Source: Pseudovirgaria hyperparasitica
Lineage: Eukaryota
DNA: 64,000 nt
Reading direction: 5' to 3' (one strand)
Assembly: GCA_010093815.1 (NCBI GenBank)
Contig: ML996573.1
This document shows positions 7,904 through 31,991 of the stretch, piece by piece. Under the pieces are notes generated by a model. It ran no database searches. It was not told where the DNA came from and saw nothing but the letters and a program-made list of their open reading frames with translations. A program made the position numbers and the translations under genes. The stretch's first letter is position 1; the number at the start of each line of letters is the position of its first letter.

Positions 7904-10831
7904 GATGGAGACCTAGGAGCAGTGGTGCTTGGCAAGTTTACGTAGGTAACGAAGGAAATACAGTGTAAAAGATAGATGTCAGCTGGATGAGCTGGGACTA
8001 GAAAGAGACGTCCACCATGCTACGTGACTCTTGCTGTGTTGTTGTGCTGCGTTACTGTCCTACGAAAGTGAACAGTGGCGAGCAATGGAATATGAACAAT
8101 GATAGCGGCGAGGTTCACTAATAGTAGGTGTAAAGCTCAGGTGTGTTTAAGGTTGTATGTGTTGCGTGTAGTTGCCAGATGGCGGCTCTATGTAATACTA
8201 TGTAATTGTGCGTACTCACACCACCCGCCCACATGGCCACGCCCGCTTCTCTGCATGCGGTCTGTATCCCGGACGTTTGGAGTGCAAGGTTCAGTCTTGG
8301 CCCTTGGGTCCACCTTGCTGTGTGCAAGGAATCTTCTACCTCGATACCCACCAGGCACTTGTTGACCAACACTCTCCACTCGGTCAGTCCCAAAGTGGAT
8401 GCGCTAGAAGAGACCGGGTTCGGTGCGTGCACGCCATCTGACGCTATCTGACGCTTTTGGCTTCTCCCGCCTTACGCATACAAACATATATATAAATAGT
8501 TATGGTTATACCCACGAGTACCATACGTGACTCTGCACCCACGTACCAGGAGTATTCATGGCCAGAGCTCTTGGCCTGCTGCCCATAAATGCCCGACCAT
8601 GATAATGCATCTGGATCTAATGCATCATTGCTATGGGCTACATCTTCCCCCTTAGCCTTCGGAAATGAAGATCGTGTGAACCTCGACCGTGGAGGATAGG
8701 AAAGCGATGAACTGCGATGAACATATATTCAACGTGGTTCCGAGTGGAAGGCTGTTCTCGCCCCCAATGCAACAACATGTCGATCTGTCTCGTTGCGAAA
8801 CTCCCGCGGCGGGCCGGAGAAAACAGGAACCGCTTCAAAGAAGTAGCCGTAGCCTTGCCTGCATATTACTGTGAGCATGGTACTATCCATGTACACAGTA
8901 GAGCAGCAGTGTTGTGGTAACGCGATGATATAGTACATAGTGTTTTATAACATTGCTACTGCTGAAGAGTACATTGGGTTCGAGAATTGGCTAAATGGTT
9001 CACACGCACAGTAGGTCCTGGCGCATAATTCACACACGACTTAAGTGCATCAATTGATACAATATAGCCTCTTTGTGCCTTGCATGTTTGACCAGGGAGC
9101 TGGAGCCTGAGGGAGGGTACTGGCGTGCCGAGAATTATCCGACGCTCACTTCATCCTGTCCGTATGTGATATAGATGCTGTTGGTGAGAGAATGAAATTG
9201 GTGGGATCAATGCTGGGCAGCCTGGGCTCGTATCCATCAATCCATGATCCCCGTGCGGGTAGCAAAATCAGAGTGGTAATATACGCCAGGAGGTGTTCGG
9301 ATAAGGCCTCGTGCTGACGGACGGATGGGCTGGTCGGATGTCGAGTTCAGGGGTGATCGCATGATGTCCCAAACGCCGATGTGCCTAGAGCTGTGCAGCG
9401 ACACCTGATCCGAGCGCGATCCATTCTCCAAGCGTGTATCATGGATGGGATGATATTATCATGGACTGATGTCGTCGACTGACATTTGGGATGCCGACCC
9501 GCAGTCCGCCCCTCAGACCTGTGGGACCTTTCGAGCCCCCATGTGTAAATAGTGGTGGAAGTGCCGAGTCTCCAGACGCTTTCGTCGACCAAACCTGGTA
9601 TCAGTTTGCGCTCCCACTAACAACAGAACACCTTGACATATGGTAATGTACATAGTACTTACTACTGATTAATTACTACCGGCCACGGCGACTAGGCAGC
9701 ACTATCGTGTGCATACTATTCCATTCCCCCTTTGACCCTTAGTACTGTGTACGTAGCGTTGTCCTTCAGACGCCGCGGCTCGAGGTCCATGCAGGTCAGG
9801 GACCCCAGCGTCTTGACTCGCCGTCTTGACTAATTATGGTTTGCTGCGATTCGACCATCTTGCTTTGCGAATTCGTGTACAGTATTTCATCTTCGGTTTT
9901 TGGACCGTCTTGTAATTGTCATCGTCGAGTCGTGGCCCTTGTCACATCTGTACCGTGGGCTTGGCTGTGGTTTCGAGATCTGCAGCGTCGCTTAGATCCT
10001 TATCCTAGCAAGCTGTGCGTGCTCGTGCTCAGCCATCAGCCTTCAGAGTTCAGCCCTTAGGGACGACAGGGCAGACAAGGGCACTCGACGCATGGATCGC
10101 GACATGAGTGGTGAGAAGGACAAACGCAGTATGTGGTAGCATCGCATTTGAATACACGAAACGTAGTTGTAAGACAAGGAGCTTCCTTTCATTTCGAGAA
10201 CAACGCTAGTCGAGCTGGCTTTGGCTTGACACCACGTGGAGCTGTAACGTGTGGAAGTGGCAGCTTAATCGGAATCCCACGATCTCCATCATCCGGGTAA
10301 TGGGTACAAAGCCAGTCATCTTTGAAGTAATCATTCGCTTTCCCTAGAGCGTATCTCATCTGCTTGACTCAAGTTACGAGAGCAGGATCCGTATTTCTTC
10401 CTTCTATCGGTAGAGCCTTGTTGCTCGCATGAGACTGACCCTCTATCATTGGCTCGACTCGTGGAAATTTAAGCTTTCGGGTGGGTGCTTTAACTACTTC
10501 TACCACGAGCAGCCTCAGGACACGAGCTCGAGTGGTCGGAACTATACTAACTGTGCAAGCCGGCATGTCACGGCCTATTAAGGAGATTGTAATGAAAGAT
10601 CTAAGCGGAGATGAGAGGAGCACTCGCCCTTTGTACAATTATCAAGCCTCCTCGCGTCTCAATGGACCTCGTCGGCCCAAAGTCTTTCATAGGCCGAGTC
10701 ATAAAAATATCCAATGCCCAGGAAATGCAGGAGTACCATAGCGCTCCAGTATGCGCCATACAATGCGAAAAATATCGTACAGTTTACCGTTCATGCATAA
10801 GAAGATGGAAACGTCCAGACCGGTTCAACCT

Positions 10832-12028
10832 TCACACTTTCGAGGTTGAGCCGAGAAGTTTCAAAACAGATTCGTAGGTGCCGAACATGATCGCAGCACT
10901 GGGTACAACGCGTAGCATGTGAGGCACGAGACCACCATATAGACTTGCCATGCCCTCCTCCTTGAAGATGAGTTTAAAGCATTGTACAAGTCCGGTGTAC
11001 TTAATTTGGCCATTCTCCGTTGGGGCAAGTCGTAATCGCGTGCGGACGACCTCGTGCGGGTAAGTGACAAGCGCGGCCACAAACTTCGCTCCGCCCGCAA
11101 CGAAGAGTTGACCAGTCCAAGATACTGTGTCATCCCACGCAGTCCTTGCTTTTCCGGACCTCTCTTGTCGCTCTTGTCGCTCTTCCAGGTATAACTTGCC
11201 CTGTTCATACAGAACCCACTGCATCGTACTTTCCGCGACGCCCAAGTAACTTGCCGTAAGGCCGCGGTACAACCCCTTGATGCCTTCTGTGCGGACTGTT
11301 TGTAGCGTACAGTCCAATGCATTCTGATATTGCCGTCCACCAGTTACGCGAGCATTGGCTTTGTCGAGTTGTAGTCTCGTCTTCACTAGCCATATAGGAT
11401 TTGTAGCAGTCCCAGTTGCAAGTCCTGCAGAGGCGGCAGAGCATACATGTACCCAGGCCGTCTCTTTCCCTCCATTGAAATGGGCGCTGATGAGATTTTT
11501 ACTATTGCCGTAAACATAGAAGTTGATTGCGCGAGCAGGTACGACTCCTATAAGATTCGGACCAAGACCTTTGAACAGCGCTCTCCACCCTTCTGCACGT
11601 GGAACCGCGAATAGTATCTGAAATGTTTCGCGGACGTGGAGGAGTGAACTGCGCGTGAAAGACATCGTCTCAATCGGGGGTAAGCCTCGCGCGTGTCTAG
11701 AAGCAACAAGTTGCTGTTGATAATAGGTAGACTGCAGCCGAGTCTTCAATACGTCTAACGGTGCTGTCAGTGTCGCTGCCGCCATTCCGCCTGCGCTGCA
11801 AAGACTTTAGCTATGATACTTGCGCGGTATATTGCCTGATGCTTACGCTCCAGCGACGAGATGAGCCCATGATTTGGCAAAGGGTGAAGGTTTTGCTCCC
11901 AACCTTGAACCATCGCTTGATACTGGATAGACGGCATCTCCGACTTCTCTTGATTGCGGCAAAGCAGCGTGCTCTACCGCAGTGCGCGCATGTTGCGCTT
12001 CCGGATTGGGTGGCGCGTCGAAAATCAT
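10832..12028 (-). CDS. RIM2: Mitochondrial carrier, pyrimidine nucleotide transporter Rim2/Mrs12
   Basis: Three carrier signatures (PLDVLKTRLQ, PIWLVKTRLQ, PHEVVRTRLR), plus FAKSWAHLVAG and GLGPNLIGVVPARAINF. Intron 11846..11796. Confidence 0.9.
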
Positions 12029-12317: not shown

Positions 12318-13109
12318 ATGATCCCCACGTATGCTTGTCTTGCACGTGCTGGGTTCTGGAAGAGAACACTCGAAGAGGCTGCTACGTTTACGCGACAAGG
12401 TAAGTGCTCTTCATCGTGATGAGGACACACTTCTGACATGGGTTCACCAGCTGTGACGTTTGAAAATGCCCGTGAACCGTCGGGGCCCCTCCATTTGATA
12501 AATTTCGATTCGCCCGACAAGATCGAAGAATGCAAAGTCATGGGCGACTTTCATCTCAGTGGGTTCTCAACAGCAGACCTCGATTACCATGCTGTGGCCC
12601 CTGGTCAGCCTTCACATGCTCGATTTCATGGCAACATATCTCTTGAACTACCACCAAATAGGCCAGAGATACAGAGGTCTGGTTTTGCCGGCTGGAGAAC
12701 ACGCGACCAGCAGCGAACTCTGTTTGGTAGACCTACCTGGAATACCGATCGATACCGATATCTAGCTGTACTTTTCAAGTCAGACGCACGTAAATACTAC
12801 ATAAACCTACAAACCAAATCTATCGTTCCTACAGATATACATCAGCATCGTCTGTACGCTAAAAAGCCGGGTGAATGGGAGACGGCATGGATAAATTGGG
12901 ATGATTTTGTGAGAACAAATCATGGATTGGCTGTCGAGCCCCAAACAGAAATGAACCGGCAGTATGTTAAAAGTATTGGTATCAGTATCATCGATCGTGT
13001 ACCTGGCACATATGATTTGAGCATAGCGAAGATGTGGGCCACAAATGAGGACCCAAGACCAGTGGAAGAGGACTATCAAGGCACGGAACAGCCTGTTGAG
13101 CAACGATAA
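12318..13109 (+). CDS. CIA30: Complex I intermediate-associated protein 30 (NDUFAF1 family)
   Basis: ATG 12318 with a presequence-like start; intron 12400..12450. Motifs HARFHGNISLELP, RSGFAGWRT, IVPTDIHQHRLY, FVRTNHG. Known neighbour of ascomycete MAT loci. Confidence 0.9.
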
Positions 13110-13685: not shown

Positions 13686-16381
13686 ATGTCTCGTTACTTG
13701 ACGCCACCCAAGATAGGCCTCCTGGCTCTGGTGCGTCTGTACTGCGAGGGCGCAATTTCAAGCTCTGGAGCGATCTCCATTCTATCATTCATTGTGTCTC
13801 ATCTACTACCTCCACTTGCAGAAGGTTCAGATGATGAACATTCAACGAGAAGCTTCACTTTACCTGTCAGCGAGTTCGACAAGGCTACTAGCACCCTTTC
13901 ATCCATACATCCTGGTCAATCAGTCTTCGATCTGCTGATCCATAGATTATGGTCCATCGACTCGTTCCACGCTCTTCATGAATTCTTCTCAGGCCTAACT
14001 GACCTGCTTAATCATAGCAAAGAACGAGACAATGAATCGAGCTTTTCCTCGCCACCAAGTGCAACAGTCCTTTCTCGCACATCGCCATTGGGTGCATTTG
14101 TCCGGAGAGCTCAGCTGGAGTTCACAAGGCTTCAGTTTAACGATGCTCAAAAGCTCTGGATAGCTTTTTTGAAGTACAAGAGCCCTACTGCTGCCGCATG
14201 GAAGAGGCGGAGTTCAGCCGCGTCTCGCATAACCTTCGACGTTAACATTGATGAGCTTGGTATCGGCTCCGATAGTGACCTTTTCCAGGTGGCGTATGGA
14301 ACCTTACACCAGCCTATCCATAGTGAGGAGCTTAGTAGTACGGATGACATCGAACGTTTACTCGCGTTCCAAGCGGACAAACTTCAACGTAAGTGTAGAA
14401 GATCACAATACTTCTATGTCACTCACAGTCATGCAGGGCTCGGTATACGGATGCCACATGATATGAAAGAGAACCTGCGTGGTATGGTCGGTCCTGCAAG
14501 CACAGTGCCGAGTTTGTCCCATTTTGTCAGGTAAAGACTTCAAAATTGAGTGAAGTGTGACGTACGCTCAATTCCAGAACAGTTTCTTTGACGCCTGGAG
14601 AGCTGGAAACTATACATCAGCATTTGACAATCTTCATCGCTACTTTGATTATACGATGCAAGCAAGGGAGAAGACATTTTACCAATACGCCCTGTTGCAC
14701 ATGGCAATCCTACAGACAGACTTCGGATGCCTGAGCGAAGCCATATCCGCCATCAATGAAACAATTGCAACGGCTCGAGAGAACCAAGATATGAGCTGTC
14801 TCAACTTCTCCTTGGGTTGGCTCAACCATTTGAACCAAGCATTTCCCCATCAGATGCGAGGCATCAGGGATCAGGGTTTGAATGGCTCTGAGAGGGATGC
14901 TCTCAATTTTCTGAAGTTGAAAGCCAAAGAGAGCAAGATGTTCTCTTTGTTAAGTTCAGCACTCCTCAGTGAGGCTAGACTCGACTTGTCATACGTAAGC
15001 CGCTGGTGTAGGATCGTGATCGAAGACGATACTTATCAAATATAGGGCGAAAGAAGTATTACCAAGGCTTTCCAACATATATATCAAGCCTCGCACATCA
15101 ACATTAGAGAGAATTTATCTGGAGGATTTGGCTCTCAGCTACTCATGCATTCCGCGGTCTTTGGGCGACTCGGTAGGTTCATCCTCGTTGGTGCATAAAA
15201 TTGTGCTGATCACAATACAGGCGTGGAACATCTAGCGAGTGCCTATTGCGACATCATCCTCAAATGCTACCGACCCAATGTTCCAACAGAAGAGATGCTG
15301 CGTGCCATTTGCCGCATGTCGTTTACTGTAAGCATGCGAGCCTCAAACAATGTCGGAAGCTTATACGTGACAGGCAGCCCGCTCCGGACGATACGAACAT
15401 GCAATTCAAATGCTCGAGAGTGTCAGGCCAGGTGTACACCGGACTTTGAAGTTCAGTCAGACCATCACGGGCTATCTCGGCCTTGTGAAGCTATTGCAGG
15501 CTATGAGGAGGTGAATCTCAATAGTATACACGCAGTAATGCTGCTAACACTACGCAGATCCAACCGTACGGCTGCCGAGCATATACTTCAACAACTAGCT
15601 ACTGGATTCTCATTCAATCCGGATCTTCGCACACTGATACTTCAGCTTTCGATCATGTTCCACATCCGATTGGGATCACTCTCGAAAGCTTTCGACCTTA
15701 TCGAGGAACTTGCGAATGAGTTGAAAGAGGAGACTGCTGATATCTCTCAGCGACTTTACCTACTCGTTATGAAGGCACGTCTATACGCCAAGGCTGGAGA
15801 GCCGCAGAAAGGCTTCAGCGTGGCATTGAGGGCTGCCAGCACTGCCCACCGCTTCCAAGCCTTCCCCATCTTCTGGGAAGCTATCGGATTCATCGCAAAC
15901 ATTCTCAGCCACTTGAATGAGTTTGATGCTGCTCGTCGTATGCTGGATGCAGTCATCCCACAAGTAAGTCGTAGCTCTGTTTGAGCGAGCAAAATGCGTG
16001 TACTTATATGAAGTAGTGTCTCGAGAATGGAGACACTGAGCTGTGTGCCTTGCTCTATTCTTTCCAAGCGGACGCCTACATGGGTTTGGCCGGGCGAGCC
16101 GAAGAGGCTGGACGGCGAAGGACCGCTTGTGTGAGTAAGGCTGAGGTCTATATCGACAGGGCGAGACAACGTATGGCTTTTATACCTCTTCAAGGAGTAC
16201 CACCTGACTTGTCATAGACTATAAGCGTATTGAAGACTGGCGCGGTGAATGCGAAATGCTCAAGAAGAGGGCGATCATCGCAAGGGTTCGGGGGGACGAC
16301 AATTTGGCGAATGATTGGGCTGCTCAGTGCCTTTCGGTACACAACGCAGCTCAAGAAAAGATGGAAAATATCGTCGACTAG
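13686..16381 (+). CDS. APC5: Anaphase-promoting complex subunit 5, multi-exon
   Basis: MSRYLTPPKIGLLALVRLY, LSRTSPLGAFVRRAQLEFTRLQF, AFDNLHRYFDYTM...FYQYALLHMAILQTDFG, PQKGFSVALRAA. Last exon ends at TAG 16379-16381. Internal exon boundaries are approximate. Confidence 0.92.
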
Positions 16382-16649
16382 GTCTCTGAATCAGTACCTT
16401 TGGAGGGTCACTAGGCTGGACCATTACAGGCGTCAAGTCAGAGCCATTTATATCATGCGCGACGAGGCACCTGCAAGTTACCATCGACTTATGTGTATCC
16501 GTGTAGGGTTATGATGATAAACAGTTTGCATTCGTCACTCTCCGCAATTGACGGTTAAACAAAAGGAATCTACTATCTGACATCGTCCTTTCTGTACAGT
16601 GTGCAATTCGCTCTCTTCTGATAATCCTTGTGATTGTTGGACAAATGAT

Positions 16650-17182
16650 TTATTCGTCCTTTTTGTGGTAGTTGACCTTGTCGTTCCAGAAAAGTGTCTG
16701 CGAGAAAAAGCGTCAGCGGCGGAAAAGATTGCATGGCAGCGTGGCCGTGTCTTTGCTCACCTTGTCACCATTACCCCAGAAGAAGTTTTTAGTCCGAATG
16801 TTTTGGTATGCGTATTCAGTCCTCTCCTCTAGAGGGGGCAGGGTGTCCCAATGCGCCCAATGGGCCTTCCATCGGACCCAGGCGTTGGCAACTCCGAGCG
16901 CGATGAGAGGAAGAGCAACGTAGATAGAAAGCTTTCGCCAGAGTTCTGCGTGCAAATGTTAGCCATAGTCCTTCCAGTAACCGATTCTCAAGATTCCGGG
17001 GAGTTGATTGCCATACCGGTGGTTTGGGCAGCATGCTGCTTGACAGCCCAGCGCTCGCGATTGAATGCATTGTCGGCTGCGCCTTGAAACGGGCTGGGTC
17101 CAGAGGAGTAGGGACGATGAGCAGCGAAGCGTTGAGCGCGAAGCAGCTGTGCCGAGCGAGTGGTGAAACGTTGAGACATCAT
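16650..17182 (-). CDS. COX13: Cytochrome c oxidase subunit VIa, 3 exons
   Basis: Presequence, then NAFNRERWAVKQHAA, LWRKLSIYV, EYAYQNIRTKNFFWGNGDK|TLFWNDKVNYHKKDE*. Start may be 17182 or 17179. Confidence 0.95.
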
Positions 17183-17494
17183 CTTCGGGCGTCGGTGGAG
17201 TGGAGAGTTGCAACGGAAATGGGAGCACGTCGAAGTTGGATTGACGTCGAAGTACCTAGGTAGGTGAGGTTCCTCTAGTGCTTGGCGTGCGCTTTGCCGA
17301 ATTAGACTGTCACGTGTTGCTGCTTTTAGCGCGTTCCTACTGTGACGTCTGCCTTTGAGGCGTAAGTGTGCCTTCACCCAACAACATACCGGACGACGCG
17401 CCGGAAGGAGGCCCTACGGATATGAGCTTCTAAGCTCAAGTTGTACGTCTCTAAATATCCGCCGCTGCGCTATATATCGACTTGATGGATCGCA

Positions 17495-19497
17495 ATGCCT
17501 TTGCGCATTACCACATGGAACGTGAACGGAATTCGTAATCCATTCGGGTACCAACCATGGAAGGAAGCCAAATCCCTCGGTGGTATGTTCGATATCCTGG
17601 AAGCTGACATTGTGATCATGCAAGAACTCAAAATACAGCGGAAAGATCTTCAGGATCACCATGTGCTAGTTGATGGATGGGATGCGTACTTCAGCCTTCC
17701 AAAGGACAAGAAAGGTGCGCAGCAGAATATCATGGTGGTCATCATACTGGAGGTTGACTGACTTGATCTAGGATACTCTGGTGTTGGAATTTACACTAGA
17801 AAATGCAAATGCAACCCAATTCGCGCCGAGGAAGGTCTTCTTGGCGTTCTCTGTCCGCCAAACTCTGATGAACCTTACTGTGAGATGAATCCCGAAGATT
17901 GTATCGGCGGCTATCCAACGCAGGCTCAGCTAGAAGATCTGGGCGTTGATGTGGACGCGAAGTACCTTGACTCTGAAGGCCGATGCGTGGTTGTGGAGTT
18001 TCCGGCTTTCGTGCTTTTTGGAATTTATAGCCCAGCCAACAGCAATGGCCAACGTGACGATTTTCGCTATGGGTTCATGTGTGCAATGGATCTGAGAATC
18101 AGGAACCTTGTGAAGATGGGCAAGCGTGTGGTCGTTACAGGCGATCTGAACGTCTCACGGGAGCCAAAGGATACAGCGGCGTGCATGGAAGACATAACAA
18201 AGGGAGGCATAAGTCTCGACGAGTACATATCCTCGCCAAATCGGCGCGTTTTCAATCAGTTGTTGGAAGGGGGGCCAGTGTTACAGCCTCGAGATCCTGG
18301 GCGTGATTCGCCTGTTCTATGGGACATTTGCAGAGGCTTTCATCCAGAACGCGAGGGAATGTACACACATTGGGAAGTTAAAGTCAATGCGAGGCCTGGA
18401 AACTTCGGAAGCCGAATCGATTATGTTCTTTGCAGTCTAGACATGAAGGACTGGTTCGAGGCGTCCGATATACAGGCTGGGCTCCATGTAGGCATCCCCT
18501 CGTACTGGCTCAACTCTCACTAACACTTCAGGGCTCCGATCACTGTCCTGTGTATGCAGTTATCAAGGATAACATCGACTTGAACGGAAAGCCTACTGAA
18601 ACACTAGATGTCATGAGCCTTGAAGGGGTTTTCAGAAACAGTATCAGACAACGAGAACTGAACACGAAAGAAATGCCAGAGTTCTGCGCACGTCGTATGC
18701 CTGAATTCTACAATCGTCGCAATATAAAGGACATGTTCACCAAAAGACCGTCCTTAAGCACCCAGAAGTCAGCAGTACTGACAATCGATGACACTGTTGC
18801 TCAGTCTTCCCGCGAAAGCGCCGTTGACTGTACAGCGCAAACATCAAATGGCAAAGGGGCCGGTAAAGCCATCCACGGCATCAAGCGCGCTCGACCGGAA
18901 TCCACACAGAGCAAGACCATCAAGCGTATAAAGTCCACAAGCCTACCGAAAGGTCCAGCGCGCCCTAGCGGCCAAATGTCTATGCGGAACTTCTTCCAAA
19001 ATGGCCCTCTATCTCCATCCAAGCCCAGTCCCTCTAGAACACCAGCATCAGACACCACAACTCCGCCCACTTCCACACAAGCTTCGAATGATACAGAGAT
19101 AATTGGACCCGTCGCTTCCTTTTCTCCTTCAACCCCCTCTACAAAATCCATACATCGCACTTGCCGCACACCCTCCCCGACGCAAGCAAGATCGAGGACT
19201 CCCACATCAACAGCAAAGACTCCACAGTCATCGTATGAACCTCCTTTAGAATCTGGAAGCCCTCACGACGCAAAACTGTCATGGGTCAAGCTATTTAGCA
19301 AGAAACCTCCACCCAGATGTGAGGGACATGAGGAGCCCTGCATAAGCCTCAAGACGGGCAAGAAAGGTGCAAATCAAGGTCGAGAGTTCTGGATATGCGC
19401 AAGACCACTAGGACCTAAGGGTGAGAAGGAAAGAGGTAGCGATTGGCGTTGTCGCACATTCATATGGTCCAGTGACTGGAACAGCGCAAGGGCGTGA
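17495..19497 (+). CDS. APN2: AP endonuclease 2 / DNA lyase, ~633 aa
   Basis: LRITTWNVNGIRN, QELK, GYSGV, GDLN, SRIDY, GSDHCP; PIP-box-like QMSMRNFF; C-terminal GRF zinc finger. Introns 17715..17771 and 18488..18531. Canonical MAT flank. Confidence 0.96.
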
Positions 19498-19845
19498 AGA
19501 ACATCGAACAAAGATATTCGACACGCCTGTTCCTCTGGCCGTCCTCAAAAGTACCTTCTTAGTAAGCTTCGTTGTTCTTCAAGAGTCATTTCTTGGTATA
19601 TCAACACATCGTATAGCCGTGAGAACGAAGGGTGTGGGCACGCGTGGGCTTGACGAGACAAGCCACTCTCATATTATGCGGTACATGCCATAGCGAATCA
19701 TTGGATAGTAGAATCTTGCATATATATGCAGCAAGGAATATGTTTTATTGCTGGACGAGGGTAGGTCAGCATCTTACGACCAGTCACGAAGCGAATTTCT
19801 AATTATATTTCCCTCGACGTTCAAATACCTCAAAGTTTCCTATCA

Positions 19846-20095
19846 CCTGTAGTTTCAATTCTCCTTGTAGCCACAATTCTCCTCGTAGTCACAATTCTCC
19901 TCGTAGTCCGAATTTTCCTTGTAGTCGCAATTCTCCTCATGGGCCCAACTTTCCTTGTGGTCCCAACTCTCCTTGTGGTCATGCTCTTATTACGGTCTCA
20001 GCTCTCTTTGTAGTCTCAACTCTCCTTGTAGTCTCAACTCTCCATGTAGTCTCAACTCTCCTTGTAGTCTCAACTCTCCTTGTAGTCTCAACTCC
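19846..20095 (+). repeat. 18-bp minisatellite, about 13 units, consensus CAAYTCTCCTTGTAGTCN
   Basis: Read directly: 7 diverged units from 19856, one degenerate 17-nt unit, then 5 near-identical CAACTCTCCTTGTAGTCT units. Confidence 0.95.
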
Positions 20096-21965
20096 GGTGT
20101 ATGAACAAAGTCGTTTGAGTTTGTGTACTGTGACTCTTCTCGTAACTCTACGCAAGGTATCTATTTGATTATGTCATGTTTGACAAGACAGCTGAATGAT
20201 TCCTTTAAAGTCTAGTCCATTGACTTATCGACTGACTGATGCACGCCATCATGTAGTACCCGCGGCCCATCGACTGAAGCTTCCACACCACCATGCCAAG
20301 ACTCACGATAACCCCTTAATATCCTTACATCCCTGAAGAAAGCATATACGAGTAGGTTTGCGATGCGCCTTAGAGATGGGAATAAGTGTAGCGCAAAAAG
20401 CGTCAAGGGTGAACCTGAGGTTTTGCAAATGTTTGATAGCGACGTTTGGTTCGCACGCCAAATGCACCGCGCACACTATGGCAGAATCTGACAAAATCTG
20501 CTACTACTGTTTGGCCACATGTTGATGCCGTCAGTGTGTCTGGTACATCAGAGCGTCATCCCCAGGTTCGCTGCCTCACCTTGCTGCCGCACCGCCACTC
20601 TGTCCCTGGCCGCCACGTCCACAAGCTCAGGCCCTCAGGCCATCACAAGACCGTCATAGCTACGAGCCTCACTCTTTGGGCTCACCGATGCCATTACGTA
20701 TTCCCAGCCTCACGAATTAAGCACTGTCGCACCGATCTGCCGATCTTCAGGACGCTGCTGCCTGTCCCGTCCAGCCCCCCTTATGTCGGGTGTCACAAGG
20801 TGGAGCTCGAGCAGTCCCCGAACGTAGGAGTCATCTGGGTGGCTGGGAGACGGGAGATTGCGTTTCAGGCCATTTTGAAGCAATCGCCGAAGCCGGCATT
20901 GGTGCTAGCGCCGTGCAAAAATTTTCTGAAAGGCTGCCGCCCCCCCTCGTAGTGAGCGCGAGAAAAATCTGGGCAGCGAGGGCTCCCACTTTTTGGAGGG
21001 ATGTGGGCGCCTTACTGCCTTGGCCTGCGAAGGCGAAGCTGAAGGTCTCCCAGCTATGAAGACAATCACATTGGCCAAGATGCTCGCGATGCTCGTGATG
21101 GCATTGCGAGCACATATCGTAATAGCACTCGGTCAAGATCCAGTCGTCACATAGCAAGCAAAAGACGAGCACCACAAGCAAAGCATCATGAGACCAGTGT
21201 TTTGTATTTGATGTTGATTTCATTGTTTTACTATGGCACTGAGCCAGATTTTCTACGGAATTGCTATCTAAACGCTCCATCCATCCATCCATTGCCAACT
21301 TTTCTCTACAGGAAGACCGAGTCCAAAGCCTCTGGCAAAGCTCATGCAAGCGTGACCAAGCAACACAGCCAGCCAGTCCAGCCAAGAAGAAGGAAGACCA
21401 TGATGAGGGAGTTGACCAAACAATAAAGCAAACGCATGCATACCATTCCTTTCAATGTCTCGCCGTCGCTATGCCAAAGACTGCCGTCCGCTCCTATGCA
21501 TCCGTGAAGAAGAAAGAAACTAAACCTGCCCACCAAGTCTTTTGCAATGAATGATGCTCTTTTCGCCGCTAGAGTCATTGCTAAACATGCTTCGAGTGAC
21601 AGGACAAATTGTAAAATGTGATGGGATATGAGTATGGGAAAACAAGTGTAAGCGACTGCCGAAAAGGTCGAGTCGAGGGTGCAGTGGTGATGTGAAAACA
21701 ATGGAACATTCGAAGTAATGAGCCGATAGTCCGAAATGGGGTGTGATCTTGTACCTGCACCACACGCTTGAGAAGAAAGTCATAGTCGTGAATCTTCGTG
21801 TCCGCAAAACTTTGTCTCAGTGCCAGCACGCTAGGCTACGTCACCCATTTACCTTTAGGCACGGCCACGTGCCGGACTTGAATAGGCTGATCACAACCGT
21901 TCCATGAACTTATCGTATAGCACATCGTCCAACCGCAACACAGAGTGGAAGTCAAACATCACGTT

Positions 21966-23429
21966 ATGGCACTCAACAGACTGACTGGAGGCATTGAAGG
22001 TAGAATCATAATGATGCACGTTCCATGTTTCTGCTAACCTTTCCTAGGCCAGAGGCATTACTCTTTCAACATGTTGAGCAAGTTGAAACAAGACTTTGCC
22101 AATCTTCCCTATCAGACTTTCCGAGATTATTATGAGAACCTTGAGGATTATGCGAAGCTCGCAGCAAAGGTCAATCGAAGGGTGAAACGGCTTATGATAC
22201 AGTGTGAAAGTCTCTACCAGAAGCCTCAAATCTTCCCACCAACCGAATCACGCGATACGTTCTTTGAGAATCTGGCACCCTTCCTTGAAAAAGCTGGTGT
22301 GATCCTTGAGGTGATAGAAAAGCTGGCACCGCTTGCGCAAGAACATCGAGAGCTGATAAAGCGAGGTCACACTGCTTACATGAGACGGACTCGACCAACA
22401 TTCGTTTGGGGTATCAAGCCCTGGAGTCAATTCCTACGACCTGGTGCACCTGGCGCATCTTTCGCTTTCGCATCCAATCTTCCCCAACAGCAATTCAGCT
22501 TGCAGGTTCTGCCGCGCGGGGGCATTTGTATCTGGTCGACATGGCTCGCTGATGCGGAATCGGAGCTGGAGAAGGAGGAGCTCAATCGTACGGGCTATCT
22601 GTCAGATCACGAGGACTTGTGGCCTGATGAATATTACTGTACGCAAGGATATGACGGACTCTACCGCAAACTTTCAAGGGAGGCCGATCAAGAGGAGTCT
22701 CGTATAAAGCACGTTGGGTACGACGACGAAGAGCCTTACTACTTCGGCCCCAGATCTCTCGAGCAGTACAACCAAATGCTCTCAATTGCAGATGGCGAGC
22801 ACCATCATGAATTCGAAACCGCAGACCTGGACCAATTCGAATACTACGAGATCACCACTTATATTCCTTCGAAGGGAACTCACAAGGTCCGAGAACCAAG
22901 AAGGATATTCCCTAAGCTGCTCTATACCAAGTTCGAACTAACAGAAATCTCTTATCCTGAGCTGAACCGAATCGTAGGACGCAAAGCAAGTCATGAGGAG
23001 GTTTACGGCTCAGTTCTAAGACGTCAAGAATTCACGACTCGCGCCCCTGAACCTGAACTTGAACTTGTTGATAATAACAAGCGCCAAACCCGGAATAGGT
23101 TTCCGAAAAGAGCTAGAATTTTGAGTAGAAGTTACGCAAAGCAGGCATTGGCATTCTATCATCGTTATATCAAGGATGCACCAAACTACAACCAGCGGGG
23201 TGGGGCTATTCCTTTTGGTAGGATTTTGAGTCGTCGTGTTAGCTTGAAGGTTTCAAAAGTCGAGCGAATTATGGAGTTGAAAGCCTTTGATGATGTTTGG
23301 TGGACTTTGCTTCACCATATGGAATTCTTAGAGGGGGTCAACAGGAATGACTTAGATAAAATATTGGGCGATATCGGCGACCATGTTTTGGCTGAGCTCG
23401 ATCTGGGAGGCCTAGAAGCGTTGTTGTGA
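21966..23429 (+). CDS. Uncharacterised ~471-aa protein, candidate accessory MAT1-1 idiomorph gene
   Basis: Exon 1 21966-21999 (MALNRLTGGIE). The 48-nt intron 22000..22047 (GTAGAA...GCTAAC...TAG) splices in frame to the 452-aa ORF 22071-23429. Lies between APN2 and MAT1-1-1; no domain recognised. Confidence 0.8.
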
Positions 23430-23741
23430 GGATTAATCGGGTTAGCGTGTTCGGGATAGGAAGTGAACAAGACAATGCAATCGCCGAATCTACCAACATT
23501 TTACACACAGAAAATGCAACAAGTGAATCTGCTCAAGAACGAATTCAAATGACGCTAGCAACCAGCCTCTTCTAATTTCTCTGTTGATATAAATCGAGCT
23601 CGCGAGGTGCAAAATTTTCTCCTCTGCAAAAACCTCAACATACAACTTCTCCAACATTTCCTCACCTCTACTTCTTCTACCTTGCTAAACCTCACTTTCC
23701 ACCAACCTTTCGACAATTGCCTTTGTCAATCAATCGTCGCA

Positions 23742-24858
23742 ATGTCTTCTTCTGATTTTGATCATGTTGACTGGGCTGCTGATTTCCTCACGCACCAGAT
23801 GCAGGGCTGGAAACCTGCCCAATTCGCCCGTTTCTTCGACAAGGTTTCCATCGTTCAGTTCCAGCTCCCGCAGGACTTCAGTTTCGGCAATGACAACGAT
23901 ACTTACTCTGTCAATGACTTCAACTTGACTGCTCTTGAGCTCCAGGGCTATTCACCAGGCTTTTCTGGAAACTACAGCGTCGTCAGCTCGCCCTCGGTTG
24001 TCAACAGTCCTGAAACTGACACTGATGATGCTGATGGCTCCACTACTCTTCAGGTCATTCCAAAGGCTGAGCGAGTTATCAAGCCTGAGCAGAAAGATCG
24101 CCGCAACAAGAAGCTTACCATGAGAAAAGCAGCTGATCTCACTGTCAAGCGCCCCAAGGGTGTCAACGCTTTCATGTGTTTCAGAGGTTTGTGCATTGAT
24201 TCTCATTTTCAAATGTTCACCTCAGCTAACTTATCCAGCTCACCATTGCACTGCTTTCTTCAGCTTGGGAGAACAGAAGCTCCGTTCTGCCTTTATCGGT
24301 CAGCTCTGGGCAGGAGATGTTTGCCGTCGCGAGTGGATCATCTTGGCCATTGCCTATTCCACCATTCGTGATGCCGTTGGCAAAGACAATGCCCCAATCA
24401 AAGTCTTCCTTGAACTCGTCTGTCCTTGGGTCGGAATTCCAGCTCCAGAGAACTATCTCTCAGCTTATGGCTACTCTCTCACTGAAGCCTCTGAGCTCGT
24501 GCAGCCTGCGCACTTCCCCAACCGCGAAGAGTTTAACATCCGCTCCGGCTTCACCGAGAAGGATGTCATTGAGTACTGTCAGTCCAACGGTTATCCTCAT
24601 GAGCTTCCAGTTGAGGAGACCGCCTCGTCTACCATGGTCATGACAGTTGCCTCCGCGCCCCAGGAGATGGAAGTCACCAACATGATGCCCCAGCCGGTTG
24701 TCAACAACGTCGACTTCAACATGGAGTCTCTGTTCGATCACCAGGACTACGGTAATCTCTACACCCTCGATGGTACCTCCTTCGACCAGAACTTCACTGC
24801 CATTCCTCAGGATGTTGGTATCAGCTTTGCTCCCGAGACCTTCTGGGATCTGAACTAA
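23742..24858 (+). CDS. MAT1-1-1: Mating-type alpha-box transcription factor, ~354 aa
   Basis: Intron 24187..24238 at the usual alpha-box position. Spliced box KRPKGVNAFMCFRAHHCTAFFSLGEQKLRSAFIGQLWAGDVCRREWIILAIAYSTIRD, followed by KDNAPIKVFLELVCPWVGIPAPENYL. APN2/COX13/APC5 context. Confidence 0.93.
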
Positions 24859-25229
24859 ACTGAGTCAACCTGCACAAGATCTCAGACTTGGGTCTTGTCT
24901 TCCGCATACTGACCAAAGCTTGCATCTTCGGCGCGTTGGGGCTTACACACTCTATGGGTTCACTCTGGTTTGTCTTCATGTCTTCACGTTGAGTTTGGCA
25001 TAGCGGCGGCTCTTTTTGCTCAGATCTTGCTTTGAACTTCAAGGCATTATCACTCTACAAGTCCTGAAGCACTAACTGGCTTATTTGTAATGCTACTGGG
25101 TCACTATACTCAAGCACAAGCAACTTGCGTACATAGCTAGCGGCGTGATCATTAGGATCTCGTTTTTAACGCTTCATAACAATGAAATCGAATGCTATGA
25201 ATCCTGTCCAAGATATCCGTGAAGCTCTC

Positions 25230-26430
25230 TCACACCTCAACCCTCACCTTCACCCTCATACTCCAACAGTAGTGTGAAGCCAAGGGTAGCCAGGGTTCAG
25301 GGCAGGCACAAATGACAGGGCGAGCGACAGTCGGCAACAAGCAGTGAGGATGACCGCACGGGCCACGAGCAAGCAAGGAGCCGAGGGCGGCTAGCACGGA
25401 CCCCAGCAGAGATTGCGCCAACAGAACGCTTTTGGGCGGCAAAGATGCACAGACGCCAGACAAGGCTTCCGTCTTGCCCCCCCCTCTCTCCAGTCCAAAC
25501 GACCAATCAGGGATGACAGTTCAGATTTCCTAGAAAAAGTGAGGGCGGCGCGGATTGGATGGCGGAGATGAGAGATGTGGGTACGTACTTGATAGCTTGG
25601 TACGTTGAGATACATGATAGATTTGGTGGCGGACGCGACACACACACACACTGACACAGACACCCACACACATATATGAGATGATGAGGGATAGAATGAG
25701 GGATGGGATGCGATGGGACGTGTCAGGAGTTTGCGAGAAGTGAGTATTTGGAATAGCAGCTGTTCCAAGGCTGATGATGCTGGCAGGACGGAGTGTTGCG
25801 AGTCGAGCGAGGGAGCAGCAGCACAAAAAGAGAATACCATGTAGATATAACCATATACATACACATACATTCACACTCCACGCACAAAACAAGACATTGA
25901 TCCACGAAGAAATGCACGCGACGACGAGAAGGGCGGGATTGGCACATCGCTGCACAGCCATCTATCACTGCAAACACCCAGCTACATGCATGCATGCATG
26001 GACGGCCGACGACGCATAAAAGAAGGCAAAGAAAGTAGTAATTATGGCGAAAAAAGCAGATTGCACATTCCAGAAACTCTAAAAAGAAGCGTAATCTGAC
26101 CGCCCGCCCTCGTGCCGTAGCCCAGACCGATCTTTCGTGCGTAACGGCGGCGATCTGAATGAAGACTAACACCGATATCCTGACATGTAATTCCCAAGGT
26201 TGATGTCGACAGAATCGATGTGATGCGGGCGGCAAGATGGAGCCGCGTCCTCCCCGCTTGTAACAGTGGTTGTGTTCTAGGTAGTTCCATGGATGTCGGA
26301 GTGGGAGTGATGGGACCCCCCTCCCCCCCCCTCTCTCTCTCCCCTCTCTGCTACCCTCTCCCTCTCCCAACAACTCTCTATATCTCTATATGTCTCTATA
26401 TACTTCTATCTGCGTGTCGGTGTGTGGGTG
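25230..26430. repeat. Low-complexity / microsatellite-rich intergenic DNA (CA, CT and poly-C tracts)
   Basis: (CA)n near 25638-25672; C/CT tract 26315-26400. Confidence 0.7.
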
Positions 26431-28818
26431 TGAGTCATCTACGCATGGACAGAAATGCAGCCAGCCTCCCCATTAACATTGATGACCTCACATGTTGTCG
26501 CAATCTCATGTCGCACAGTTTCAGTGAAGAACCATCCGCTAAGCCAATCTGGGTAAGCGAGGGGAGAAGTGGGGCCCAAGGGTTCTTTCTATTCAGGGCA
26601 GCAATTGAGAAACGATGGGGGTCAAGGCGTCACGGCGGCAAGTGGGGGTCAACTTGTCAACTTTCAAGGGACTGTCCGACCAATCATAACACCGGATCAC
26701 GAGTTGCGTCATCGTAACGTGATGCTGCAGTGGGTGAAATATGAGAATGAAAATGAAAATGGAAGTTACGACGATGCAAGTGCCAGGTGCAGAAGTGGCG
26801 AAATACCCCGTGGGCAGCTCGATGAAACAGCGCTAGGCTGGATGTAGAAGTGTTCATTCGCTGACTCGCTCTGCCTCACAATCCAGATGACAGCGAGGTT
26901 TTGCCGGGCGAGGATTCCATGCAGATCAGCTGCAAACGGCACTTTACCATCTAATTAATAGTGACCGCTGCGAATCACTCTGTCCATCATGACTACTACC
27001 ACCATCCGTGATATCCACACCCAAACCACGAAATACGATGGTGATGCATGGCCTCGGGATATTGTTTGCCTGCTGCACATACACACGGTGCATGCGTTCG
27101 TCGGGGGAATTCCTGCACGCAGATAGTAGGGTCTTGTACCACCTGCGTATCCTTTGTTTGCTTTCCGTCCTGTGCATTTCTTCAAGGGTCTCGCTCGTCA
27201 CTTTGTTTGCCTCATATCATACTCCTCTGCATCGGCTTCTGTATTGGTCTTGGACGATCGAGTCTACATCAGGACCACCTCCACTACTGCCTTGCACTTC
27301 TTGTCTGGACATTTCTTGACTATTACTTCTTGGTCCTCGGTGCTCTTCGCCAGCCGGACAACACTCCGACCAGAGGTAACATATCCAAGCCCATCACATC
27401 CCTCGCTGTGCCACTATGTAAGAACCACATCCCCATAACTGACCATGCTTCGCAGTCAGCAGCCTCGTATTACTGGGAAGCATGCTTCCACGCCTCTACC
27501 AGCTCATACCCAGAGATGAAGGCCGCCACCAGCACGCTCCGAGTCAGCGTGCCTTGTCCGTGCGAACTTCTTGACGCTATGTCTCGCATCCGCTCAGGCG
27601 CCGACGACAATCCCAAGACCATCTCCGCCACGGAAGTACATCGCCATGCCTAGCCTGTCATCTGCTATACTCTTCACCCAAAGACCGGTGTCTCTACCTC
27701 ACTTCCACCAGCCATGACCGATCAATATACCTCAGCCTCTCCCAGATCCCCGCGCACGCAATGCCGAAAGCAACGGCGGACCAACAGTCCCTTCTATCAT
27801 ACTGCATGCCGTGTGACACGAAAAACGTCGATCCCACAGAACAGGGTTGACATGACTAGGAGGTGCACAAACGTCCCCGTCCGTAGAGCTTGGTGTTGGT
27901 TTCCATTGCCTCGCAGGTCCCTTGTCGAAAGGCTAGATGCAGCACCCTCTACGGGCTGTCGACCCGACGGCAGCAATATAACAGGTAGACGGTTCTTCTG
28001 TGCCACTGACACATATTGTTGTGTCTATGGTTGTCGTACGAGAGGCCTTGCCGATTCATATATCCCCGCTCTTGTCACTATGGTCATGTATGGCCGCCTT
28101 ATTCGGATGCATGCAGCTGGGCGCCGAGAGTTTACAGATAGGAATGCTGTTTGATTGTCAAGGGAGCAAATGACAAAGGTATCCTCCATCTGTCAGGCCG
28201 CCTCCCTAACGACAAGCCAAATCCAACCATGCGACGATATTCTGTCCGTCGAGCTGTTCTTGGCCTCGCCAACAGGTTGTATGCCGTGTCAGATCCACAA
28301 CTCCCGTCGACAGCCTTCTTATAAGATAGATGTACTTCACTTGTTCGTAGACAAAACACTTTGACTGTGCGTCTTGCTCAACTGTTGCTCGATTCGTCCA
28401 AAGTCATGAACAGACACAATGAACAAGCAGAGAACCAAGCCGAAACTGGCCCTTGACTTATGAATACGTACCTCAGATGACAGGACATCATCGTGCTACG
28501 CGACAGTACTTACGTGTATCGTGTCCAGGGGATGTTGATGAAGACGACGCAGAACAAAACTACATGATTGAAGCAGCGCAATGAATTCATCATTGTCTTA
28601 GCGGGGAAGGTGCGGACCCGCTAGCGCGTCGGTCCCCAGCGTCATTCCGGTTGTAACTGACAACCCAGCACAAGTCGACATCTCGACCTTTGACCGCAGT
28701 CGGGAAGCAGTATCACCTCTTGTGACCACGTCGTCCTCTCTCCACGGTACAGTACCGCCCAAACTCTCGTTCAGCAGATGGCTACGATCCACATGCCACG
28801 TACCTGTCAACCACCGTC

Positions 28819-31800
28819 ATGGTGAGCCTCTCCGGCTTTCTGTTCATCTACGTCCTGGGCGGAATCACCTTCATTCCACTCGTTCTCGTCGTCGTTCTAC
28901 TACACGCTCGTTACCTTCTCCCAGTCCGCGACGCGACTTCGGATACATCCCACACTACTACAGACAGACCGGGAGAGAACAGCAAGTCTTCGAAAGACGA
29001 CGATAAGAGCTGGGAAATTGACTCCGGCAAGCTTCCGGCCGAGCTCAAAAAGCGTACACATGAGCCAGACGTCGCGGCCGGTTACTTTGCAGTATGTCGA
29101 GAATATGTGCCTGGAGGTGTCAATGGCAAGCCGCCAGAGCGAACGACACCGGCGGGCGAGGTAGTAGCCACGGAGAGTCCGAGCGTGTACCAGAGCATGT
29201 ACCGCAGTATATTTGACCGGAACAAGAGTCAGATCCCTACATTGGACAGCGGTAAGACAGGAAGCAAGCCTCTGAAGAAGGCGCGGAACGTGTTCTTTGT
29301 GGTCCTGAGGTAGTTTTCCTGCTTTGAACTCAAATGGAATGTAAGGCTGAAAATTGACGCAGACATGGGCACTTGATGCTATATGACGACGCCGAACAGC
29401 TCGAAGTACGCCATGTTATATCGCTAGCCTACTACGACGTCGATGTATACGCTGGAGGCGAGACCATACCGGAAGGAGAGCTTTTCATCAAGCGAAATTG
29501 TGTACGGCTGGTCCGACGTCGAGCCCTTGGGACTCTTGACACCGACGCGAAACCATTCTATCTGTTTTGTGATAACTGCTCCCTGAAGGAAGACTTCTAC
29601 CACGCAATGCTGGCGAATCAAGAGAAACGACCCGACGCTTCTGACAGCCCTCCGAGCCCTCTGCAATTCGACACGCAAGACATCGTCAAGCTGGTGCAAA
29701 CACTTCATGCCTCTGAAGAGACTTTGCAAACCAGATGGTTCAATGCATTGTTGGGGCGCGTCTTTCTAGGCATATATCAGACGCCAGACATCCTGGATCA
29801 TGTGAAAGCAAAGATCACCAAAAAGATTGCGCGAGTGCCCAAGCCTGCGTTCATCACCAGTATCACTGTGCAGAAAATTGATATGGGAGATGCCGCTCCA
29901 ACGATTACGCACCCTAAGTTGCGAGACTTGTCGGTAGATGGACAGTTGACATGCGAAGCGGACGTGCAATACAAAGGGAACTTCTCCATTGAGATTCTAG
30001 CCGTTGCGCGCATAGACCTTGGAAAGAGATTTCAGGCTCGTGAGGTCCATCTCACTCTTGCGGGAGTCCTCAAGAAACTCGAAGGGCATCTGTTGATCCG
30101 GATCAAGCCACCACCGAGCAACCGAATATGGATATCCTTCGAAACAGCGCCCCAGGTTGAAATGTCCATTGAGCCCATCGTTAGCCAACGCCAAATCACG
30201 TACGGCGTCATTCTCCGCGCCATCGAAAGCCGAATCAGGGAGGTCATCGGGGAGACTCTCGTCTATCCCAATTGGGACGATGTACCGTTCCACGAAACAC
30301 TTCTCCAGAGATTCAGAGGAGGCATCTGGCGAGATGATCACAAGCTGAGGCCACTACCAGACCAGCAAACCGATGCTGCCGAGCATGGTCTCGTGGACAA
30401 GGTGGACAAGTTGGACAAGGGATCGGATTCTGATGAGTCAGATCTGCCAGCACCGTCACAAAGCCTTCGCGAGAAGACAATGAGCATGCCCTCTCTAGTC
30501 GACACCGCCCCGAGGATCACGCATCGTAAATCGATGTCCTCCAAATCGGCCATGTCGCTAGACGGTACTCACACTGAGCAAGGAACTTTGACCAGTTCTG
30601 AGTCCAGGTCGAGCCCAAAGCCAAGAGCTATGCGATCGACATCCTTCGCCAGCGCTGCCACCCCTGTCGTCAACCTTGACCCTGCGACTGTGGAAGCCTT
30701 GAAACGTCCTGGCAAACAGAGTGTGGCCCAAAGCGCCATCAAAGACATCTCAATGCGATCGCCCCCAACTTCTCCTCCCGAGTCCCCATATGGATCACCA
30801 CCTCAACCGTCTCTAGTTGAGCATGTCGTCAAGAAAGACAGCGTGTCTTCTCAGGAGTCTCAGAACGAGGATGCATTGGAGCCCGACTCTGTCATATCAT
30901 CTTCCCCAAAGCGCTCAATGACGCAAGCAAGTATCTCTACCACCGATAGCTCCTCTTCACACGACTCAGGCAAGTCGAAATATGCCACAATCAACGCAGT
31001 CTCGCGAGCAGGCCTGAACCAAGCAACCATTGCGGCCAAGAAGTGGTTCGCAAATCGCCAGCAGACACACAACCAACCCAATGTACCCACATTCACGGCA
31101 AAAGACGCCGCCGCTATTCTACGCGGCGACAAGGAACTCGAAGCATCACACGCTGCGCCTGCACCAGGAACTCCCTCGAATCCCATAGGCCGCGGCCAAC
31201 CACTACCTCCACCCGGCCAACCTCTTCCTCATCCTCCGAAACAGCACCAGACTGCCGGCGGCTGGTATCTCACCAAACGCAAACCCGCACCACAGTCTTC
31301 CGGCATGGTATCACATAGTCCTTTGATGCCTGCAACACCCACTCGTCGCACATCAAGTTCGGCATCCTCGACCATAGCAGACGCCACTAGCCTCGCCGAT
31401 CCTGGGCGGGAAAAGCAACGTGATAGCGCGCCTGACACTCCCGATCTGGTTCCCACCGCGCCCGATCTGCCTCCGCGCCCCGGCTCGGCCCTTGATCCCG
31501 GACTTTCATCCGCTGATCAAACCCACGACATGTTCTCCATAAATACAGCTCCACTGAATGACAAAAGCATGAGCAGTTCCAAGTCCATAGCCGCGAACGA
31601 GCGTCGCAAATCTAGCACAGCCAGTCTTGCTGGCACAAGCACCCATGCTGCCCCTCCATCCTCGCCCCGCGCGCCCCCGCGCCGGAAGCGTCTGAGTGTT
31701 GCGCACGCTCGTGATGTAGATACCGGGCCTGATAATGGGCTGCTCGTTGTCAAGGCTCCTGTCGCGGACGACGTGAGTCCGCTGGCAAGTCCGGAGAAAG

Positions 31801-31991
31801 GCGTGATGGGTGTTATTGATGATCCATTGGATGTGGAAGCAGACAGAGTTGTGCGCAAAGAGGTTGAGAGTGCCAGTGGTGGGAGTGTCGATGAGAGCAG
31901 GACGGAGAGGATGGGACGCCACAGACACGAGAGGAGCGAGAGTAAAGACGACGATGCAGATGCGGTATTTTTGAGTGCAATGGACATGTAG
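28819..31991 (+). CDS. Nvj2-like membrane-anchored PH + SMP (DUF2404/MMM1-type) lipid-transfer protein, ~1039 aa
   Basis: N-terminal TM (IYVLGGITFIPL), AAGYFAVCREYVPGGVNGKPP, PH segment FFVVLR|HGHLMLYDD...KEDFY, SMP segment RWFNALLGRVFL...IKPPPSNRIWISF, Ser/Pro-rich tail. Intron 29310..29362. Confidence 0.88.

Follow-up and report, generated by a model that had tools for sequence, protein, structure and literature searches.

A probable MAT1-1-7-family gene with a long lineage-specific tail between APN2 and MAT1-1-1 in Pseudovirgaria hyperparasitica

Accessory genes of the MAT1-1 locus have been described under many names, and the account given here draws on the accessible passages of a number of sources (10.1101/2020.04.14.040725, PMC8905617, 10.1101/2020.12.18.423428, PMC10512270, PMC3961304, PMC6652019, PMC11515122, PMC5358931, PMC6562746, PMC10569646, PMC5821092, PMC10298223, PMC3091305, PMC3125171, 10.1101/2024.06.12.598762). 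In those passages, the Letharia preprint and paper report homologues of lichen MAT1-1-7 in Eurotiomycetes and name the genes of Trichophyton verrucosum and Diplodia sapinea; they make the case that MAT1-1-4 (as the name is used for Trichophyton), MAT1-1-7, MAT1-1-9 and perhaps MAT1-1-8 are one gene. The Cladonia MAT1-1-7 was assigned, as far as the consulted text goes, by its position and by BLAST hits to Trichophyton, and the Stereocaulon gene is described as standing before MAT1-1-1 and running in the same direction. Another accessory gene, MAT1-1-13, is given as encoding 90 aa. MAT1-1-2 is described by its PPF and HPG triplets. Deletion of MAT1-1-2 or MAT1-1-5 is reported to block development after fertilisation, so that no ascospores are formed; transcripts of Podospora SMR1 rise after fertilisation and are nearly absent in vegetative mycelium, and Botrytis MAT1-1-5 mutants form no croziers, their authors proposing a possibly dimeric regulator.

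The gene considered here lies in a window of 64,000 nucleotides, the whole stretch of DNA that was analysed, from Pseudovirgaria hyperparasitica (Dothideomycetes, Acrospermales). The original prediction was of a one-intron gene of 471 amino acids, placed between APN2 and MAT1-1-1, co-oriented with them and ending about 310 bp before the MAT1-1-1 ATG, and all of this is borne out. On translation the joined exons (1416 nt) give 471 aa with a single terminal stop, and the product is identical to the GenBank hypothetical protein EJ05DRAFT_385461 (P0001) of the same fungus. APN2 is 2.5 kb away and the MAT1-1-1 ATG (23742) follows 312 bp past the stop, all three genes, the neighbours being recognised with Pfam, lying on the same strand. 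The features of the locus are collected in Table 1.

Table 1. Coordinates of the gene, its parts and its neighbours in the window
Feature	Position	Strand	Basis and remarks
CIA30	12423-13109		Pfam
APN2 DNA lyase, upstream flank	17762..19497	+	PF03372 E 1.3e-7; GRF zinc finger below cut-off; introns skipped; 5' end slightly further upstream
Stretch sharing its spliced contig with the gene	20065..21965	.	1.9 kb, X3/X4 contigs (contigs 11, 16)
Exon 1	21966..21999	+	ATG, 11 codons + 1 nt; translation and identical GenBank model
Intron	22000..22047	+	48 nt, GT..AG, CTAAC branch site; absent from X3/X4 contigs, retained in X1
Exon 2	22048..23429	+	Ends at TGA stop; 463-codon open frame; inside one spliced contig
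MAT1-1-7-family domain, aa 17-183	22062..22562	+	Three-helix bundle, then motif segment; profile scores, AlphaFold helices
Signature motif, aa 127-177	22392..22544	+	RPxF..PWxQFL..APG..Q..PxGG..W
C-terminal tail, aa 184-471	22563..23429	+	Acidic and rich in Tyr, turning basic and closing with a short acidic helical part; no homologue in the searches
MAT1-1-1 alpha-box gene	23742..24858	+	PF04769 E 5.6e-24; intron 24187-24238, which splits the alpha box, skipped in X3/X4
PH-domain / SMP-type membrane protein gene (PIM, DUF2404 type), downstream flank	28726..31991	+	PF15413 E 4.7e-9; MMM1 below cut-off

Three sequencing runs (X1, X3 and X4, the last two representing one sample of one study) were mapped on positions 16000-31000. 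The type of runs X3 and X4 is not on record, and they are called RNA from skipped introns alone, because their contigs skip exactly the 48 nt of the intron and eight further GT..AG or CT..AC stretches in neighbouring genes, whereas those of X1 skip none; the depth of these contigs cannot rank genes. Splicing of the gene is therefore supported, and MAT1-1-1 and the PH-domain gene are spliced in the same two runs. No second intron was seen in exon 2 in the spliced X3/X4 contigs. The open frame of 463 codons has a chance of about 3e-8, as computed from the stop frequency of the window, and on these odds, the spliced contigs and the conserved motif residues a pseudogene or a chance ORF is rejected. 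The same spliced contig extends far upstream of the gene ATG, over a stretch that contains 44 ATGs, the longest frame from them being 71 aa; a long leader, APN2 read-through and a separate, merged RNA are the candidates for this cover, among which unstranded contigs cannot tell. Just downstream of APN2, at 19848-20094, there is a tandem array of an 18-bp unit (13.8 copies, 81% matches), where contigs break. At the other end of the locus, the spliced joints 27373-27454 and 29310-29362 place a further exon of the PH-domain gene about 1.4 kb upstream of its predicted start.

The genes between CIA30 and APN2 are presumably APC5 and COX13, in line with the published locus order; the piece of APC5 scanned in Pfam gave TPR hits only. 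The order of the window locus matches CIA30-APC5-COX6A-APN2-[accessory gene]-MAT1-1-1-PIM, which the consulted passages give for Botryosphaeriales MAT loci. The genome itself contains one match to the 471-aa protein, one alpha-box match (MAT1-1-1) and six HMG matches, none of which is on the contig of the window. Judging by their translations, we take these six to be housekeeping HMG proteins, and tblastx of the flanks 19498-21965 and 24859-28820 against the six loci gave no match. Since there is a single alpha box and no HMG match on the contig, the genome is most simply that of a heterothallic MAT1-1 isolate.

The 471-aa protein belongs to no Pfam family and, as had been foreseen, carries neither an alpha box nor an HMG box nor any further recognised domain. 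The word-seeded search with exon 2 returned, among 6,837 candidates, only the protein itself, ESM Atlas contained no usable match (TM at most 0.33), and the 288-aa tail has no homologue; these results would suit an orphan of a new, unnamed and lineage-restricted MAT family, as the gene was originally taken to be. The other searches speak against it. With a cut-off of E 0.001, phmmer found 21 further proteins among 1.84 billion representatives (E 1.6e-10 to 9.7e-4, 25-35% identity), all of them matching one N-terminal stretch, residues 17-183, so that the homologous share is only 35% of the protein. Among 20 of these matches looked up, organism names were found for four, namely Elasticomyces, Candelaria, Vezdaea and Caeruleum. 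Seven matches, none a named MAT protein, came from the word-seeded search with the 23-row alignment, Candelina being among those added. From 7,999 candidates, a profile of the motif only recovered 25 proteins, of which ten are named records from Onygenales; the cluster P0039 (10 of the 25 proteins were looked up) contains EFE33855.1 from Trichophyton benhamiae and EFE43236.1 from T. verrucosum, both labelled 'MAT1-1-4; mating type protein'.

In direct pairwise comparison, the window protein is 28% identical to the T. verrucosum MAT1-1-4 over 172 aa (E 3e-11) and 27% identical to that of T. benhamiae over 166 aa (E 2e-11). A 16-row profile of the Onygenales clade, built without the window protein, scores the gene's ORF at 40.6 bits, and the runner-up among 1352 window ORFs at 4.3. 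The pairwise match and this profile refute the orphan reading for aa 17-183, and with the invariant motif and the position in common with named MAT1-1-4/-7 genes, a new orphan family has become very improbable. The profile of homologues without the window protein scores aa 17-183 at 102 bits, while the highest among 2000 shuffles reached 9.6; the set was selected by this same query, so the score shows coherence, not independence. The profile-profile comparison of A4 with A2, in which the window domain is included, gave a probability of 99.7.

Among the homologue matches there is no record labelled MAT1-1-7 or MAT1-1-8, and the gene receives its name by way of the Trichophyton record and what the papers say of it. 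Neither phmmer nor the searches with the 23-row alignment and the motif profile returned Botryosphaeriales sequences, and the searched supplements of PMC6652019, PMC10512270 and PMC3961304 contained no text of a MAT1-1-7 or MAT1-1-2 sequence. A metagenome scan confirmed two of 109 pattern matches as homologue loci (L002 and L003), and in both an alpha-box gene follows just downstream on the same strand (PF04769 E 7e-31 and 1e-32). The APN2 side could be examined in L003, where the 5.7 kb before the homologue contain no match to APN2 (0 of 1 testable loci, L002 being without upstream DNA). On the minus strand of L003, at 9363-11560, there is a gene resembling the nuclear-fusion genes KAR5/Tht1 (PF04163, at an E of 5.7e-4 that does not reach the cut-off), which sits 1-3 kb downstream of MAT1-1-1, at the place expected for SLA2. 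The NCBI model FQN49_001039 (P0042, 824 aa) fuses APN2 to a MAT1-1-7-family domain; this fusion is probably a prediction error joining neighbours, and it implies that the two genes adjoin. In a tree of 34 domains the Onygenales form a clade at 100/99 and the deep nodes are without resolution; the window protein is long-branched and pairs with Elasticomyces at 80/38 only, which leaves orthology unsettled.

Because of the Trichophyton MAT1-1-4 matches, the naming in the Letharia papers and the position beside the alpha-box gene, it may be concluded that the gene is very probably the Pseudovirgaria member of the MAT1-1-7 family (the 'MAT1-1-4' of Onygenales, also MAT1-1-9 and perhaps MAT1-1-8), in the usual place between APN2 and MAT1-1-1 and with a long lineage-specific tail. 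Its structure, its splicing, its position and the homology of aa 17-183 are the observed part of this identification, and in these our confidence is higher still. The notion of an accessory MAT1-1-x gene thus stands, and that of an unnamed family falls, together with the idea that no named MAT gene corresponds to it; restriction to one lineage is contradicted by matches in Onygenales, Candelaria, Candelina, Vezdaea, Caeruleum and Elasticomyces.

The conserved domain includes a signature motif, in which W137, Q139 and G147 are invariant among 37 sequences and R127, P136, F140, L141, P146, P167, G170 and W177 are at least 90% conserved. The window protein keeps all of these near-invariant residues, which, along with the intact 471-codon frame, suggests purifying selection. 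AlphaFold predicts confident helices at residues 16-29, 43-68, 77-126 and 168-197, and the models of the window protein and of its Candelaria relative both contain a confident helical bundle. Thus, the helical N-terminus proposed earlier is retained in the prediction, as are, by composition, the acidic Tyr-rich middle and the basic C-terminal region, with the addition that the last 61 residues are acidic again. The fold search suggested at the time gave such a bundle and no specific match: Foldseek returned nothing at E 0.001 for both models, and the PDB searched by sequence gave at best E 0.079, to generic helices. The best hit of VIA-align with the Candelaria model (Z 8.8, rmsd 2.8 over 89 residues) was set aside as not specific, being one of many three-helix bundles. 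The signature motif can serve as a usable marker for a family that has no Pfam entry.

The tail of the window protein is 288 aa long, compared to about 110-135 aa in full-length relatives of about 280-325 aa (282-325). Its net charge is -19 in aa 184-283, where Tyr makes up 12% of residues, and +16 in aa 284-410, before the acidic stretch of aa 411-471. No phmmer match among the 1.84 billion representatives covers it, and its best E value against the relatives is 1.3. A second, C-terminal motif was suspected by eye and found no support: the Onygenales C-terminal profile gives 0.6 bits on the window tail, a value reached by 47 of 1000 shuffles, and only 5-10 bits on the tails of Candelaria, Candelina and Elasticomyces. 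A conserved first part and a variable C-terminus are also what the consulted Letharia text ascribes to MAT1-1-7. AlphaFold pLDDT is mostly below 50 for residues 225-423, where the alignment is empty, so the low score does not prove disorder; weak helices are predicted at 366-392 and 413-470. Many predicted proteins or exons of relatives stop a few residues past the motif, a place at which L002 (600-700) carries a GTAAGT donor; a conserved intron after the motif, without a counterpart in the window gene, is likely in the relatives.

From these features one could propose a chimera, in which a MAT1-1-7 domain has been joined to unrelated captured sequence that contributes a further function, such as the binding of nucleic acids through the basic segment. 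The excess length of the tail would agree with it, as would the window frame running on unspliced where the relatives' exons end, at the L002 donor, and the two weak helices of the model. However, Pfam, word-seeded, phmmer and Foldseek searches found no donor or family for the tail, and the same picture would arise if a splice site or stop had been lost, so that the frame reads on into non-coding DNA, or if the tail had diverged fast. Capture is, in our opinion, an improbable origin of the tail.

MAT1-1-1 is present in both Pseudovirgaria samples found, and confinement of its accessory neighbour to the MAT1-1 idiomorph may be presumed only with caution, because relatives occur on the other side: the consulted passages report MAT1-1-4-like genes in HMG-bearing loci of two sequenced dermatophytes and a truncated MAT1-1-8 retained in MAT1-2 strains of Phyllosticta. 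By analogy, the Pseudovirgaria gene might derive from MAT1-1-7 and have drifted into the shared flank, where it would be present in both mating types, its mating role lost or replaced by a vegetative one. Its long branch, the undetectable C-terminal segment of the family and the presence of the spliced form in a fungus described as a hyphomycete (in titles of papers) could be understood in the same manner. Against this stand the kept motif residues and intact frame, which suggest purifying selection, and the location of the gene, 312 bp from MAT1-1-1 and 2.5 kb from APN2. Drift into the flank is therefore unlikely, though slightly less so than a chimera. Among the Pseudovirgaria papers listed, none deals with mating type by its title or abstract beginning.

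The only Pfam family that approaches the motif is that of MAT1-1-2. When 22 motif segments were compared with 24,736 Pfam models, PF17043 alone appeared, in two of the 22 rows (Elasticomyces and P0016), the best E of 0.021 being below the cut-off; an earlier scan of 23 rows had given it in two, both Elasticomyces, and the trimming to the motif segment was chosen after that scan had been seen. By hand calculation, E 0.021 divided by 24,736 models corresponds to about 8e-7 per comparison and 2e-5 over the 22 rows, for this family only. The Elasticomyces protein aligns with its aa 143-206 on positions 79-143 of the 146 of PF17043, almost gap-free. In the full-length relatives the best score is 13.2 bits, far under the 26.3-bit cut-off, there is no hit in the window protein, and none of the 16 full-length proteins scanned matched the family (0/16). 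PF17043 against the fungus's own genome gave no candidate, and the controls were silent too.

The MAT1-1-7 family has PxF followed by [AS]PG 17 residues on, which in the window protein read PTF and APG. These triplets may correspond to the PPF and HPG of MAT1-1-2, the latter being represented here by its profile and description. MAT1-1-2 is located on that side of MAT1-1-1 which faces APN2. Titles and abstract beginnings of the literature searched, outside of which most subscription papers fall, propose no link between MAT1-1-7 and MAT1-1-2, and the name MAT1-1-2 does not occur in the main text of the Letharia paper as accessed. We consider it a real prospect, if slightly short of an even one, that the motif of MAT1-1-7, MAT1-1-9 (and MAT1-1-8) and the PPF/HPG domain of Sordariomycete MAT1-1-2 are one and the same ancestral module, in one ancient family. 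If so, the 'lineage-specific' second MAT1-1 genes would form a single family, passed down together with the alpha-box gene in Eurotiomycetes, lichen fungi, Dothideomycetes and Sordariomycetes and having one conserved post-fertilisation job. The various names in use would then belong to a single ancient gene, its function known from Podospora, Sordaria and Fusarium mutants, and the function of MAT1-1-7 could be tested directly by cross-complementation, with the help of the known MAT1-1-2 phenotypes and the invariant W/Q/P/G residues.

A helical bundle, an exposed motif of invariant W/Q/P/G residues and the lack of a DNA-binding box fit a protein-binding cofactor. The protein would be produced by MAT1-1 nuclei together with the alpha-box factor, its three-helix bundle and exposed W/P/G-rich motif acting as a protein-binding module, and would serve as a cofactor or scaffold after fertilisation, in nuclear pairing, crozier and ascus formation, like MAT1-1-2 and MAT1-1-5; it would not set mating identity. 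For the charged tail flexibility is probable, and a contribution to nuclear localisation or activation is a guess. The consulted passages contain no functional study of any MAT1-1-7 gene, and this mechanism is borrowed from other accessory genes; by such analogy, the chances of a post-fertilisation role appear evenly balanced. The spliced form of the gene in one sample, whose growth conditions are not recorded, runs counter to it when compared to the near-silent vegetative SMR1.

As it stands, this is a divergent MAT1-1-7-family gene, real and spliced, of modest significance. An unannotated 'hypothetical protein' becomes a member of a MAT family, which is extended to Acrospermales, and the two intact, spliced genes of the MAT1-1 locus, present in what has been described as a hyphomycete, fit hidden heterothallic sex.

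Among the known systems, Pyrenopeziza MAT1-1-4 sensu stricto is the most easily told apart, being described as metallothionein-like and Cys-rich, whereas the window protein has 3 Cys in 471 aa. Sordariomycete MAT1-1-2 (SMR1, mat A-2; PPF/HPG domain, PF17043) is also an accessory MAT1-1 gene without a DNA-binding box, but the window protein does not match PF17043 and has PTF/APG instead of the canonical triplets. Leotiomycete MAT1-1-5, likened to the window gene by its description in the consulted text, is the accessory MAT1-1 gene that offers the clearest phenotype model. Botryosphaeriales MAT1-1-8 (Diplodia, Phyllosticta) is of the same class and locus order, a likeness drawn from locus and accessible literature, although in Phyllosticta it is opposite in orientation to MAT1-1-1, unlike the window gene. 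Lecanoromycete MAT1-1-7 (Letharia, Cladonia, Stereocaulon), according to the passages available, has APN2 on one side and MAT1-1-1, whose direction it shares, on the other, as the window gene does, and is linked to that gene through the Trichophyton protein. The Onygenales MAT1-1-4, that is MAT1-1-7 (Trichophyton, with relatives in Microsporum, Histoplasma, Paracoccidioides and Emergomyces), differs in its length of about 280-325 aa against 471, in a C-terminal segment undetected in the window protein and in the downstream flank, which is SLA2 there and the PH/DUF2404 gene in Pseudovirgaria. It has the same N-terminal helical domain and the motif RPxF..PWxQFL..[AS]PG..PxGG..W in common with the window protein, and both genes adjoin APN2.
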